A stretch of 64,000 bases of DNA, from sequence record MK327931.1, one strand, 5' to 3'. The stretch comes from Escherichia phage vB_EcoM_G17. A program made the position numbers and the translations under genes. The number at the start of each line of letters is the position of its first letter. Positions within the stretch are counted from its first letter, which is position 1. This document shows positions 18,053 to 33,596 of this stretch, in pieces. The notes under the pieces are model-generated. The model saw only the letters and a list, made by a program, of their open reading frames with translations, did no database searches and was not told the DNA's origin.

Positions 18053-18398
18053 AATTTACCTCATATGTATTGTAACACCACGGTTTAACAATATCGATTT
18101 GTATATCATTTGCTTCATGAAAATGTTTAAGTACCTTCTGGTATTCCATTATTTCGTACACATCTTCAGTACTGATAGTGCTCTGCTGAAACAATTCCTC
18201 TTCTGATAAAGTACTATAATCAGGGATTTTTATTTCTGAATATATATCATTTATCTTTCCATTATATTGATAAATCTGGATATAAAATTGATTGTATTCT
18301 GGAATATAGGTCACATAATGGTTGTGGTTGATTACATATCTTGAAACAAAGTATTCAGTACCATCAGTCATGTACTGAATTGTTGTCGTATTTTTCAT
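18036..18398 (-). CDS. family A paralog (short form); function unknown
   Basis: core SEEELFQQSTIST. Confidence 0.75.
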   Translation of the reverse strand: MKNTTTIQYMTDGTEYFVSRYVINHNHYVTYIPEYNQFYIQIYQYNGKINDIYSEIKIPDYSTLSEEELFQQSTISTEDVYEIMEYQKVLKHFHEANDIQIDIVKPWCYNTYEVNYVRND

Positions 18399-18858
18399 TC
18401 AAATAATCCACGCATTTATAGTATACTACTAAATCTAAAAAGAATCGTTGTTTGTATTTGTAATGATGAAGTAGTGCACCATAAAATAACATAGCATTAA
18501 GTACTTTTACATCATGAATACAAGAACCCTGAAAGTACATTTCCTCTGACATGAACACTAAATCATCATACTTAACAAATACTGCTTCTCTATAATTGTC
18601 AATATTAATCTTCAAATCAGACCCAGGGCAATATGAAATGTATCCGGCTTTGTAATGAAAGTCATTGTCATCAAAGTACTCGGCATAGATTTGATTACCT
18701 CTTTCATTAGTAAACGCAAGTCTTCCTTTGGATGAACTAAACTCATCGTATTCGAACATACCACCAAATGGGTCAGGACTTCTGAACTCCTTTGCAATGC
18801 GATAGATATTTTCTGCAAATTCTAAAACACCATCGTAATCATATTCTGTAGTAATCAT
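18364..18858 (-). CDS. family A paralog; function unknown
   Basis: core SEEMYFQGSCIHD. Confidence 0.75.
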   Translation of the reverse strand: MITTEYDYDGVLEFAENIYRIAKEFRSPDPFGGMFEYDEFSSSKGRLAFTNERGNQIYAEYFDDNDFHYKAGYISYCPGSDLKINIDNYREAVFVKYDDLVFMSEEMYFQGSCIHDVKVLNAMLFYGALLHHYKYKQRFFLDLVVYYKCVDYLNEKYDNNSVHD

Positions 18859-19331
18859 AAACCATTTTTCTCCAGGTACTCAATAATACAATCGAGATTG
18901 TTCAGGTCCAAGTAGAAATGATCACTATCTGAATTTAGTTCATTTTTAAGGGCAGTGTAAATCACTGAACTGAAAACAATCCTCTCTGGATACACAGTAC
19001 TGTACTGGAAGAACTCTTCTTCAGTGTTAATTTCAGCCGTATCAAATCCTTCATTTATAAGATGATGATTGTAGTATTTGAAATTATCTGAACTTGGGAA
19101 ATGGTATGAAATAAAATCACCACTTGGTACTTCATCAAGCACTCTAATACTACAAGTTGATTCATCTGAACTATAGAGTAACCCATCCATAAAGGAAAGG
19201 TATCCATTTCGTTTTTTGACTGTATGTTTGCCTACGGAAAAATCTTCAGTAACATTTGTAAGGAATTTATAAACCCTGATAATGTCTTTTGCTATTTTTT
19301 GTGCATTGCTAAATGATAGGTCTTTGGACAT
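18855..19331 (-). CDS. family A paralog; function unknown
   Basis: core TEEEFFQYSTVYP. Confidence 0.75.
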   Translation of the reverse strand: MSKDLSFSNAQKIAKDIIRVYKFLTNVTEDFSVGKHTVKKRNGYLSFMDGLLYSSDESTCSIRVLDEVPSGDFISYHFPSSDNFKYYNHHLINEGFDTAEINTEEEFFQYSTVYPERIVFSSVIYTALKNELNSDSDHFYLDLNNLDCIIEYLEKNGL

Positions 19332-19364
19332 TGTGATATAACCCTTTACAATTAATATAAAGAG

Positions 19365-19394
19365 ATTATATCACAAAGAATCGGAGGGTGTCAA
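19365..19394 (-). promoter_or_regulatory. sigma70-like promoter inside the family A array
   Basis: -35 TTGACA (19389-94, overlapping the stop of the upstream gene), 18-nt spacer, -10 TATAAT (19365-70). Confidence 0.6.
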
Positions 19395-19927
19395 GATGGG
19401 TTGCGAAGTTCTACCATTTCTTTCCAAACTAATTGGTAATCTTCTAAGTCCAGATAGAAGTCTTCATTCCAGTGCTCATGAAAGTACTTATACATGAATA
19501 GAACTCCTAAATCGTATGCAGGAAACAATAATGATAGTTGAAAGTAGTATTCCTGATTTAAAACTATATCAATAAACTCTAATGTACGTATGCCACCTTT
19601 CGATGAACGTATCTCAATGTGTGAGGTATCCTTCATACTGTAACACATGAAACCACCTCTAAATTCTGGATCATATTCACATTCGAACTGCTCACTGTTG
19701 TTATAGAAATCTCTCCCACTTTCTTGATCTTTCGGTCTACGTACTGATACATGAATATTTTTATCACGGTACATTGAACGATTTAGTATTTTCAAACATT
19801 TGAACTTATCTTCTTTAATGAACTTGATAATATCAATTATATCTTGTGCTGTACTGATAGCTGATTCGAATGTATCCAACTTAAGATGATTATATTGGGT
19901 TCCAGAGTTCATTTTTTTATCTAACAT
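19391..19927 (-). CDS. family A paralog; function unknown
   Basis: trimmed to MLDKKMN after GAGG; core NQEYYFQLSLLFP. Confidence 0.7.
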   Translation of the reverse strand: MLDKKMNSGTQYNHLKLDTFESAISTAQDIIDIIKFIKEDKFKCLKILNRSMYRDKNIHVSVRRPKDQESGRDFYNNSEQFECEYDPEFRGGFMCYSMKDTSHIEIRSSKGGIRTLEFIDIVLNQEYYFQLSLLFPAYDLGVLFMYKYFHEHWNEDFYLDLEDYQLVWKEMVELRNPS

Positions 19928-19934
19928 ATAAACC

Positions 19935-20276
19935 TCATAATTCATACATTTTTGATTTGAACTGCATATGACCACCTATTTCACATGGATAACAATTCAT
20001 AATTTTGTTCAATAGAATCTGGTATTTTTTAATAACTTCTATATCAATTTTTATATTACTATTAAAAACTAATGATTCTTGAAATAATTCCCCCTCGTCA
20101 AGTGAAGTAAAATCATTTATCTTCAAGGGTATATTGTTGCATCGCAAGGAGAATGTATTTTCATCACGAATTAAAGTATAGAAATCATTATGTTTTTTAT
20201 TATAATCAAATTTAACAAGTAGTAGTTTAATATGAGTAGCGTACATTACTTTAACTAATTCAGATTCACGTCGCAT
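19935..20276 (-). CDS. family A paralog (short form); function unknown
   Basis: core DEGELFQESLVFN. Confidence 0.75.
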   Translation of the reverse strand: MRRESELVKVMYATHIKLLLVKFDYNKKHNDFYTLIRDENTFSLRCNNIPLKINDFTSLDEGELFQESLVFNSNIKIDIEVIKKYQILLNKIMNCYPCEIGGHMQFKSKMYEL

Positions 20277-32134: not shown

Positions 32135-32162
32135 TATATGTTCTCCTTTAAAATGAATACAC

Positions 32163-32191
32163 ATGATAACAGCTTTGGTCTTCTATGTCAA
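32163..32191 (-). promoter_or_regulatory. sigma70-like promoter inside the family A array
   Basis: -35 TTGACA (32186-91), 17-nt spacer, -10 TATCAT (32163-68). Confidence 0.65.
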
Positions 32192-32201
32192 TACCAAAAC
32201 G

Positions 32202-32238
32202 AAAAAAGCCCATATCTTACGATACAGGCGTTATGGGC
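32202..32238 (-). terminator. rho-independent terminator
   Basis: GCCCATA..TATGGGC stem followed by T6 on minus strand, spanning the stop of 32217..32723. Confidence 0.7.
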
Positions 32239-32723
32239 ATGTTGATTTGAATTTCATTGTACAAATCATCAATATATAGACATGAAAAAAACACACTATC
32301 TTGTACTATATTGTTGTGATAAAGCATTTTAAATACTACATAAAAAAATAAATCAATATCATCGTGGACTAAATTCTGCTGGAACCACCACTCGTCTGTT
32401 AAATCTTGTGCATTAAAATCATCAGGAACTTCAATGAACGACATATCACAATCTTCTTTGTACTCAAACCACATGTCGTCATTCGGATAACGTTCATGCT
32501 TCTCTGGGTAACAATTGCTGGGATTAAATGTTAAAATATTAAACCCCGTAGAGCAACGTTCTTTATTTAAAAATGTATTATTCCATACCTGATATTTTTC
32601 ACCAACATCAAGCTCTTCTGTTACTGATTTTATTGCACATAATGTACTGTATATTGTTTCTATCTTGTGAACATATTTAAATGCAGCATCTAAGCTGAAC
32701 TCTAAATCATACATGTACTGCAT
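32217..32723 (-). CDS. family A paralog; function unknown
   Basis: core TDEWWFQQNLVHD. Confidence 0.75.
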   Translation of the reverse strand: MQYMYDLEFSLDAAFKYVHKIETIYSTLCAIKSVTEELDVGEKYQVWNNTFLNKERCSTGFNILTFNPSNCYPEKHERYPNDDMWFEYKEDCDMSFIEVPDDFNAQDLTDEWWFQQNLVHDDIDLFFYVVFKMLYHNNIVQDSVFFSCLYIDDLYNEIQINMPITPVS

Positions 32724-33043
32724 AAAATTACCTCAACTAAAGCAAGAACTGTATTAAATTCAACTATACTTGTAATTCCTTGAAGGTACATGTACTTTGC
32801 TACTACATATTTCTGTACTAAATTATAATTATTAAATTCCTCAAAATTGTAATTTAGAACAAAATCTGTACTCAAAAATATCTTATGCATCTCTAATGCA
32901 CTTTGATAATACGCGTACAACTCACGGATATCAATACTGGTTAAATTATATTGTTCATATCTATGATACGGGATGGCTTCAATTTCAATACTATAAAACC
33001 ATTCTCTTAACTTATTAATATCAAATGTATTATTCAGCTTCAT
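32702..33043 (-). CDS. hypothetical protein (no FQ core)
   Basis: 113-aa ORF in the array. Confidence 0.6.
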   Translation of the reverse strand: MKLNNTFDINKLREWFYSIEIEAIPYHRYEQYNLTSIDIRELYAYYQSALEMHKIFLSTDFVLNYNFEEFNNYNLVQKYVVAKYMYLQGITSIVEFNTVLALVEVILCSTCMI

Positions 33044-33596
33044 AACTCAATACCTCCATTAAACACTCATACACACCATCAATCGCATAAGCACAAAAAT
33101 TGAAATTAATTTTGTGATTCTTGTGTAATGGACTATTGTGTACTGTACTCATTATGACATTATAAAATAACAAACGCACTGGTACAAGCATTGAACCTTG
33201 GAAAAATTCTTCCTCTGATTTATATGTATTGTACTCTATTGTTTTGTTCGTTTCTTTATCATATGTTACCATTACTAATGGGGAATTTTTATTATACCAT
33301 GCGTACTCTAAATCATTCTTTCCAATAACAGCACCAGGTGCGAAATCCAAAAGACCAATAACACTACGGGCATTTGGTATATCTGGTGTATTGAATCGTT
33401 TATCAAAATGACTCGTGCACGCAATATATGTATTGTACTTCGATGGAATAATACCAATACATTTGTGGAAATGACGCTTGTGATATTTCTGGGCATTATA
33501 TAAGGATGCAACAATACAAGCTAACTTTTGTCCCATAAGGATTGCATTAGCGTAGGTGTACTGAATTTCATTGCTGGTACGGTACTTCGAGGTCAT
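33030..33596 (-). CDS. family A paralog; function unknown
   Basis: core SEEEFFQGSMLVP. Confidence 0.75.
   Translation of the reverse strand: MTSKYRTSNEIQYTYANAILMGQKLACIVASLYNAQKYHKRHFHKCIGIIPSKYNTYIACTSHFDKRFNTPDIPNARSVIGLLDFAPGAVIGKNDLEYAWYNKNSPLVMVTYDKETNKTIEYNTYKSEEEFFQGSMLVPVRLLFYNVIMSTVHNSPLHKNHKINFNFCAYAIDGVYECLMEVLSYEAE

Follow-up and report, generated by a model that had tools for sequence, protein, structure and literature searches.

Why should dozens of neighbouring genes in a bacteriophage encode a peptide that looks like the cleavage site of a viral protease? The question is raised by a 64,000-nucleotide stretch (the window) of Escherichia phage vB_EcoM_G17 (MK327931.1), a 121Q/Sharanji-like jumbo coliphage (Asteriusvirus), in which many predicted proteins read E-E-x-Y-F-Q or a close variant. 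An earlier note on this DNA had pointed out the resemblance to the sites of TEV NIa and HRV-3C proteases and left two readings side by side: a structural element, or a substrate (processed or decoy) of some Gln-specific protease encoded by phage or host.

Results

A tandem gene family shares the motif as its signature

Chance does not account for the repetition of EExYFQ. The three minus-strand reading frames contain 34 copies of the motif against one in the plus-strand frames, at a spacing of roughly one per 400-550 bp on a single strand, and an iterated HMM joined 40 genes of the window into one family in which F and Q are invariant (Table 1). As a conserved signature, with the consensus [LM]-[ST]-E-E-x-[YLF]-F-Q-x-S-[LT]-[VIL]-[YHWF]-[DN], the motif marks a family of tandem paralogs that is lineage-specific to RaK2/121Q-like jumbo phages. 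A spot check of the translations recovered every string quoted in the earlier note at the minus-strand genes named there. The span of the family is wider than the coordinates given there (8191-36889) and has about eight degenerate FQ genes interspersed. The five paralogs at 24096-26417 read EEYYFQNS, EEYYFQQS or EEYYFQQN, and DELFQ, GELFQ and EELFQ are present in many further members.

Table 1. Features of the FQ gene array in the window
Feature	Position	Strand	Remarks
Tandem array, 40 HMM-confirmed FQ members	8191..36889	-	All on the same strand, head-to-tail; a few unrelated small ORFs and ~8 degenerate FQ genes between
Motif SEEELFQQSTIST, short-class gene 18036-18398	18168..18206	-	HRV-3C-like ELFQ; protein modelled for short class
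Motif SEEMYFQGSCIHD, gene 18364-18858	18511..18549	-	SEEMYFQGS; exact TEV-type E-x-x-Y-x-Q-G
σ70-type promoter, perfect TTGACA-18-TG-TATAAT	19365..19394	-	In 59-nt gap upstream of gene 18855-19331
Motif TEEGYFQGSTVYE, gene 23031-23480	23166..23204	-	TEEGYFQGS; exact TEV-type; protein modelled for long class
Five close long-class paralogs, [ST]EEYYFQ[NQ][SN]	24096-24548, 24526-25014, 25014-25457, 25454-25924, 25926-26417	-	
σ70-type promoter, 11/12 with TG	32163..32191	-	Gap 32165-32216
Terminator-like hairpin	32229..32208	-	Just before promoter 32163..32191
Motif SEEEFFQGSMLVP, gene 33030-33596	33180..33218	-	EEEFFQGS
σ70-type promoter, 11/12 with TG	36145..36173	-	Gap 36116-36174; upstream of gene 35870-36115 and the remaining array

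The members, most of which are acidic, fall into a short class (~105-135 aa, motif at aa 60-95) and a long class (~150-207 aa, motif at aa 100-155). About 65 are encoded by the complete related genome EC22.5-2, and a 40-kb part of a RaK2-like Klebsiella phage yielded 23 HMM hits and four further motif matches. Among 1.84 billion proteins, the family is represented by 159 sequences at 50% identity; its mean column identity is ~12%, and F and Q are the only invariant columns. The array is mosaic between otherwise near-identical genomes: in megablast comparisons its coverage was just 53-84% in genomes that are 95-98% identical over their aligned parts, and the ortholog of one gene ranged from 100% down to 30% identity across Asteriusvirus genomes. 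The locus therefore shows the features of a multigene family, namely many same-strand paralogs arranged head-to-tail, a conserved core with a fast-diverging remainder, and an array that varies between close relatives.

Relatives were detectable only within the RaK2/121Q phage clade and its uncultured relatives. A word-indexed homolog search returned orthologs solely from the same phage group. When divergent representatives were compared with GenBank phages by tblastn, one matched Escherichia phage EJP2, one matched Klebsiella phages of the RaK2/K64-1 type and three had no match. Pfam, NCBIfam and PADLOC gave no consistent hit for family members, a profile search of the PDB gave none at E ≤ 10, matches in BFVD were confined to hypothetical proteins of the same clade, and those in PHROGs were all families of unknown function; no fold match was found. 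Neither the family nor its motif is described in the papers searched on 121Q, phAPEC6, Sharanji, UE-S1, JP4, fEgEco12 and CBB or in jumbo-phage reviews, which contain just a general remark about tandem arrays in 121Q.

Selection acts on the protein

Across 186 sequences, and counting from the glutamine as position 0, F is found in 186 and Q in 184. Downstream, S(+2) is kept in 86%, L/T(+3) in 93% and V/I/L(+4) in 95%, followed by an aromatic residue at +5 and D, N, E, T or S at +6; upstream, E(-5) is kept in 80% and S/T(-6) in 67%. The position that would be P1' of a protease site is the most variable of the motif (Y 52, L 27, Q 25, E 21, N 20, M 10, G 8, A 8), and P2'-P6' are conserved. Information in the HMM peaks on the motif, with weaker conserved aromatics through the β region and an FYxD element. 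Some members (16062-16625, 19391-19945 and 30470-31084) read Q-L-S-L-[ILV].

Codons at the conserved positions vary (Phe, TTT 20 and TTC 20; Gln, CAG 25 and CAA 15; Ser, AGY 23 and TCN 10). Comparison with phage EC22.5-2 gave a pN/pS of 0.26, which indicates that the array genes are genuinely protein-coding and subject to purifying selection. Between these orthologs there are eight changes within the motif, three of them at P1'. One of the exact TEV-type sites is affected: SEEMYFQGS (18364-18858) is TEEMYFQES in EC22.5-2, a 97.7%-identical phage, so that the Gly has been replaced by Glu.

The motif is predicted to start a helix

In the AlphaFold2 model of a long-class member (23031-23480; pLDDT 82, pTM 0.76), residues 94-100 (EEGYFQG) form a helix directly after T93, and the motif blocks reach pLDDT 95 (10-residue block) and 92. 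In the model of a short-class member (18036-18398), the helix spans residues 66-75 (EEELFQQSTI), directly after S65, with motif values of 91 and 90; the model mean is 64, and the poorly predicted remainder is too weak for fold comparison. The following helix begins at +7 in both. The motif is the most confident segment of each model, a ranking that is partly a product of its conservation in the alignment.

Serine or threonine with a glutamate three residues on (the capping box, S/T-x-x-E) and a hydrophobic pair at N' and N4 (the hydrophobic staple) are standard signals of a helix start. The family follows the combined pattern Φ-S/T-x-x-E-Φ closely, with a hydrophobic residue at -7, S, T or D at -6, acidic residues from -5 to -3 and a hydrophobic residue at -2; both predicted helices begin exactly past the S/T, and a second cap, D/N(+6), directly precedes the next predicted helix. 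Unlike a generic capping motif, however, this one has an F and a Q whose invariance capping does not account for. The suggestion that the motif may simply be a structural element is thus favoured, as F-Q lies inside an N-capped helix in the models of both size classes. The accompanying idea of an acidic and probably exposed stretch survives in its first half: glutamate stands at -5 and -4 in ~80% of members, but according to the models these residues belong to the opening turn of a helix and not to an exposed linker. A buried helix or strand had been named as the observation that would speak against cleavage; the models largely provide it by placing F-Q within a helix, and they cover the helical state, not burial. 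Taken together, the models suggest that the motif is most likely a folded helix start and not a cutting site.

Resemblance to protease sites is limited to part of the motif

The likeness to the TEV NIa site ENLYFQ|G/S is real as far as P1: in the family P6 is E in 80%, P3 is Y in ~35%, P2 is F in 100% and P1 is Q in 99%. The earlier claim that several cores fit the TEV consensus exactly holds for E-x-x-Y-x-Q, found in 13 of the 40 window members and 45 of 145 representatives, but with G/S at P1' the figures fall to 2 of 40 and 4 of 145. Similarly, the impression of an HRV-3C type is borne out by [LVI]-F-Q in 18 of the 40, as in LEVLFQ|GP or the coronavirus Mpro sites (LQ|S/A/G; VTFQ|S), yet none of these 18, and none of the 145 representatives, has G at P1' in this [LVI]-F-Q context, and Q-G-P is absent from both sets. 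In contrast to the TEV site, P1' of the FQ motif is G/S in just ~5% and conservation extends over P2'-P6'; the models predict a folded helix instead of an extended linker; and the motif belongs to a dsDNA phage of E. coli and not to a potyvirus polyprotein. The structural objection applies equally to the HRV-3C and Mpro comparison, as does the one concerning the protease itself, which follows.

The absence of a protease gene from the window, as previously stated, held in a Pfam search of the family members and the nine largest non-family ORFs. We then compared approximate TEV NIa, HRV-14 3C and SARS-CoV-2 Mpro queries with all 1285 EC22.5-2 ORFs that are 50 aa or longer by phmmer and obtained nothing below E = 0.4, in a search of low sensitivity that would miss a divergent chymotrypsin-fold enzyme. 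In a scan for active-site patterns, the sole ORF with GxCGG was a Nudix protein.

The array lies in a region of σ70-type promoters

The array has few gaps, and these carry consensus σ70 promoters, as do nearly all gaps upstream of it (Table 1). The family gene 36175-36579 lies on the 5' side of the promoter at 36145..36173 and is not driven by it. Transcription from σ70-consensus promoters by the host RNA polymerase implies that the array is probably early, and from its sequence it is apparently a σ70-driven early region. None of the proteins of the family region of phAPEC6 (gp404c-466c) is among the 62 proteins of that phage's virion proteome.

Discussion

These observations are best explained, and we think probably so, if the FQ motif is a structural signature of a diversified family of small early proteins, and its likeness to a protease site is coincidental. 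The first half of the motif would start a helix, with the staple formed by N' (-7) and N4 (-2), S/T(-6) as N-cap and N1-N3 occupied by acidic side chains. Packing into a small core would be expected of the invariant F and of the hydrophobic positions +3 to +5, Q and Ser(+2) probably make fixed hydrogen bonds of the helix-turn-helix junction, and D/N(+6) would cap the next, long helix. No cleavage would occur at F-Q. The genes would be transcribed leftward by the host RNA polymerase from their σ70-consensus promoters; tandem duplication would have raised them to ~65 copies per genome, with the helical junction kept and all else diversified, above all the N-terminal β/loop part. By analogy, the members are most likely diversified host-directed proteins, which may bind or inhibit varied host targets stoichiometrically in host takeover or anti-defence.

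The invariance of F and Q at ~12% column identity exceeds that of most purely structural positions, and a binding or catalytic site would fit it too. The motif helix (EExΦFQxS) could be a shared docking module that contacts one common host machine or phage hub, while the variable N-terminal parts bind different targets, which would make the family a set of adaptors or decoys. This extreme conservation, its sharp peak at one short stretch and the polar character of several conserved residues (E, E, Q, S, D/N) speak for such a module, and the poxvirus ankyrin/PRANC and F-box families may offer an analogy. The bacterial β-clamp is bound through the pentapeptide QL[SD]LF, which the Q-L-S-L-[ILV] of three members loosely recalls, as a lead only. 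Both models, however, show a folded helix-turn-helix junction and not a free peptide, the hydrophobic pattern (-7, -2, -1, +3, +4, +5) suits core packing, further semi-conserved core positions exist, and no partner is known; we therefore regard docking as rather unlikely. Equally doubtful is its broader form, in which Φ-S/T-E-E-x-Φ-F-Q-x-S would be a common handle by which ~65 diversified early proteins, acting as adaptors, decoys or pseudosubstrates, all engage one conserved machine of host or phage; in its extreme form, the partner would be a still-unrecognised Gln-directed protease. A small enzyme or ligand-binding family, with E(-5), E(-4), Q(0), S(+2) and D/N(+6) as its site, is less probable again. 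An invariant Q and near-invariant S beside acidic residues would suit it, and the lack of a fold match leaves room for a new activity. Against this, about 65 copies per genome of otherwise unconstrained sequence would be atypical, E(-5), E(-4), S and D are each substituted in 14-60% of members, the short class has only ~105 aa of which half are poorly ordered, and Pfam, NCBIfam and PADLOC are without a hit.

That phage or host has a Gln-specific chymotrypsin-fold protease (3C/NIa-like) which cuts after F-Q, or is trapped by it, seems to us very improbable. In its favour, P2 is F exactly as in ENLYFQ, 13 of 40 members have E-x-x-Y-x-Q, and two of these have G at P1' too. Moreover, TEV protease tolerates many P1' residues, so that a variable P1' alone does not exclude cleavage, and the Mpro auto-site at nsp5-6 is itself VTFQ|S. 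Proteases bind their substrates in extended conformation, however, and here the motif is predicted to be helical and the best-ordered segment. P1' drifts freely, also between orthologs, where an exact site has become FQES, and P2'-P6' are conserved although such proteases do not need them. In addition to the negative, low-sensitivity search of EC22.5-2 for 3C-, NIa- or Mpro-like ORFs, the only annotated protease is of the T4 gp21 prohead type, which cleaves after Glu in T4 and acts inside proheads, and the family is absent from virions. To our knowledge, only RNA viruses have 3C/NIa proteases, and we know of no Gln-specific endoprotease of E. coli. The earlier proposal of a processing site or decoy is thus unsupported, and the resemblance to ENLYFQ|G, though real, is best explained as coincidence. 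The least credible possibility is a nucleic-acid element, GAAGAA..TTYCAR, kept as DNA or RNA (a recombination hotspot or regulatory site) with the peptide incidental. It would suit the regular recurrence on a single strand, but the conserved positions all draw freely on synonymous codons, serine on both of its codon sets, and the amino-acid motif persists in a different phage genus; codon usage effectively refutes a DNA-level explanation of the repeat.

Large viruses are known for comparable arrays, such as the zinc-ribbon expansion of about 35 copies in phage G (PMC7824862), the runs of over 30 similar genes that phages G and 121Q carry (PMC5646251) and the genomic accordions of poxviruses (cited in PMC13359090). 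Like these, the FQ family comprises dozens of paralogs in tandem that share a small conserved core and diverge elsewhere, in an array that is mosaic among near-identical genomes. It differs in having no recognisable domain, fold or assigned function and in its size, ~65 copies or roughly a tenth of the phage's genes.

As a protease site the FQ motif is of no importance, beyond the practical point that TEV protease might cut members carrying an exact ENLYFQG-like string if these were expressed unfolded with TEV-cleavable tags. Should the common-handle reading hold, a tenth of the gene set of a jumbo phage would represent a new fold and a new way of manipulating the host. Its importance otherwise lies in the family that it marks: about one in ten genes of the 350-kb 121Q/RaK2-type phages belongs to one uncharacterised superfamily with an invariant F-Q. 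The signature allows such "hypothetical proteins" to be grouped and counted across genomes. For jumbo phages without a phage nucleus, this provides a delimited set of candidates to screen for roles in host takeover and anti-defence.

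A very large, lineage-specific gene family

The FQ family consists of tandem paralogs that share a Φ-S/T-E-E-x-Φ-F-Q-x-S motif. BLASTP linked 30 genes at 8-37 kb of the window, 29 of them true members, and an iterated HMM seeded with these 29 linked 40 members. The coordinates in an earlier note do hold family genes, while the family extends more broadly by HMM (see table); all motif strings quoted there were confirmed at their genes, one by direct re-translation. Approximately eight more genes interspersed in the array carry degenerate versions of the motif. F and Q are invariant in the alignment of the 40 window members, and the motif is no chance pattern.

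The phage belongs to the Asteriusvirus jumbo myophages (genomes ~350 kb), and nearly all window genes lie on the minus strand. Over window positions 18000-34000, identity is 99.5% with Escherichia phage SHEFM2K, 98.5% with phAPEC6 and ~96% with 121Q; Sharanji matches at 100%, within the portion present in its record only. In EC22.5-2, an unannotated relative whose complete genome was assembled for this analysis, an HMM iterated on the whole genome recovered 65 members, ~42 in the main array and nearly all with the same motif; at ~65 per genome, the family accounts for some 10% of the phage's genes. In a Klebsiella RaK2-like phage, 40 kb of sequence gave 23 HMM hits and 4 further motif matches. 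Searched exhaustively with the profile, 1.84 billion representative proteins yielded 159 relatives (E <= 0.001), and all Foldseek matches in BFVD were hypothetical proteins, from SP27, 121Q, RaK2 and Serratia phage BF. Members are mostly acidic (median pI 4.95 versus 6.07 in other window proteins). We found neither family nor motif described in the literature searched on 121Q, phAPEC6, Sharanji, UE-S1, JP4, fEgEco12 and CBB; the tandem-array remark of Hua et al. may concern the unrelated 29-gene array directly upstream. The FQ family is very large, uncharacterised and lineage-specific. The name "amidohydrolase 3" of one phAPEC6 member, gp447c, looks like an annotation error because it is without Pfam support.

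Coordinates of features in the vB_EcoM_G17 window and in related phages
Feature	Sequence	Position	Strand	Detail
FQ family array	window	8191-36889	minus	40 members
σ70 promoter in array	window	gap 19332-19390	minus	TTGACA-18-TG-TATAAT, 12/12
σ70 promoter in array	window	gap 32165-32216; promoter 32163-32191	minus	11/12
Terminator-like hairpin and T-run	window	32208-32229	minus	followed at once by strong σ70-type promoter 32163-32191
σ70 promoter in array	window	gap 36116-36174	minus	11/12
Second tandem family	window	36879-43265	minus	29 consecutive BLASTP-linked genes, ~52-90 aa; stop/start codons mostly overlap
GC content step	window	near 42 kb		~31-33% to ~37-39%
Very dense host-type promoter field	window	43266-64000	minus	each before single small genes
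194-aa ORF, weak protein kinase resemblance	window	47581-48165	minus	Pkinase E = 0.0024, 17.8 bits vs cutoff 31.7 (sub-threshold)
FQ members, second looser cluster	EC22.5-2	~303-343 kb		divergent, outside main array
FQ members, singletons	EC22.5-2	near 5.6, 98.8, 139 and 152 kb
Nudt16-like Nudix hydrolase	EC22.5-2	118797-119348		Pfam PF22327, E = 2e-18
FQ member gp447c	phAPEC6 (L001)	21669-22046		ortholog of window 27668-28186

The motif is conserved beyond F and Q

Position frequencies were compiled from 186 sequences (146 of the 159 profile relatives and the 40 window members), with Q numbered 0 (P1). F occupies -1 in 186/186 and Q is present in 184/186, flanked by S/T at -6 (67%), E at -5 (80%) and -4 (77%), Y/L/F at -2, S at +2 (86%), L/T at +3 (93%), V/I/L at +4 (95%), an aromatic at +5 and D/N/E/T/S at +6. 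P1' (+1) is the most variable position (Y52, L27, Q25, E21, N20, M10, G8, A8). The motif is conserved at the protein level; codons at the conserved positions in window members are TTT 20/TTC 20 for Phe, CAG 25/CAA 15 for Gln, and AGY 23 and TCN 10 for Ser. Relative to EC22.5-2, which is 97.7% identical, pN/pS is 0.26 in the family and 0.15 in other window genes. Across 40 ortholog pairs of the window and EC22.5-2, eight amino-acid changes fell within the 12-residue motif, none of them at F, Q, +2, +3 or +4. Three affect P1', and one of these turns G into E in SEEMYFQGS, an exact TEV-type site. The information content of the family profile peaks sharply at the motif, with weaker conserved aromatics in the β region and an FYxD element in the long class.

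A probable helix signature rather than a protease site

The long-class gene 23031-23480, modelled by AlphaFold2 with the 40-paralog alignment (mean pLDDT 82, pTM 0.76), showed N-terminal helices, a three-stranded β-meander and then helices 85-92, 94-100 (EEGYFQG) and 106-120; the FYLD element contributes a short strand ahead of a C-terminal helix. Confidence was highest in blocks 91-100 (95) and 101-110 (92). The short-class model (18036-18398) was poor overall (pLDDT 64), and its motif was also helical (66-75, EEELFQQSTI, pLDDT ~91), with a long helix from +7. In both, the motif helix starts directly after S/T(-6) and the next helix directly after +6. Hydrophobic staples and capping boxes are established helix-start signals; Φ(-7)-S/T(-6)-E-E-E-Φ(-2) is predicted to form one of each, and the helix that comes next is predicted to have D/N(+6) as its N-cap. 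Hydrophobic residues recur at -7, -2, -1, +3, +4 and +5, which suggests that F(-1) is buried.

The earlier note had proposed a TEV/HRV-3C-like cleavage site or decoy following an acidic, probably exposed stretch. The stretch is indeed acidic, and the helix start at S/T(-6) in both models would therefore make it the first turn of a helix; both models place the motif in a helix rather than a loop. Since proteases bind substrates in extended conformation, a stably folded motif would be a poor substrate. The likeness itself is partial: E-x-x-Y-x-Q occurs in 13/40 members, with G/S at P1' in only two (18364-18858 and 23031-23480), and [LVI]-F-Q in 18/40, none with G at P1' or with Q-G-P. TEV protease reportedly tolerates many P1' residues, so P1' variability only weakens the protease idea. 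Furthermore, the FQ family conserves the five positions past P1', and 3C/NIa specificity would not demand this.

As the note had stated, the window holds no protease that Pfam detects among FQ members or the largest non-family ORFs. A low-sensitivity search with TEV NIa, HRV-14 3C and SARS-CoV-2 Mpro as queries matched none of 1285 EC22.5-2 ORFs (>=50 aa) below E = 0.4. The single GxCG[GSA] match in an ORF of plausible length was the Nudix protein. Published annotations list a T4 gp21-type prohead protease as the sole protease; phAPEC6 FQ orthologs (gp404c-gp466c) are absent from its 62 virion proteins identified by mass spectrometry, and therefore the family is not a head-maturation substrate. 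Taken together, with a varying P1', five conserved positions after it and a predicted helix, processing or decoy function is not supported. The main feature that a generic capping motif does not account for is the absolute invariance of F and Q; a shared docking surface might explain it, a reading we consider unlikely. The best-supported reading is the structural element that the note had kept as a fallback: a predicted helix-start and helix-junction signature of the family.

Transcription and possible function

Intergenic gaps within the FQ array are few and carry consensus σ70 promoters. One 52-nt gap between two family genes holds both a hairpin and a promoter; because the hairpin directly precedes the promoter, this arrangement suggests that the array is split into separate transcription units. 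Upstream by transcription direction (43-64 kb), almost every gap has a σ70 promoter, 12 of them perfect (12/12 TTGACA-N16/17-TATAAT) and presumably immediate-early. The promoters suggest that the whole leftward block is transcribed early in infection by host RNA polymerase; we found no transcriptome data. FQ proteins are probably early, and we infer that they may be diversified host-directed binders.
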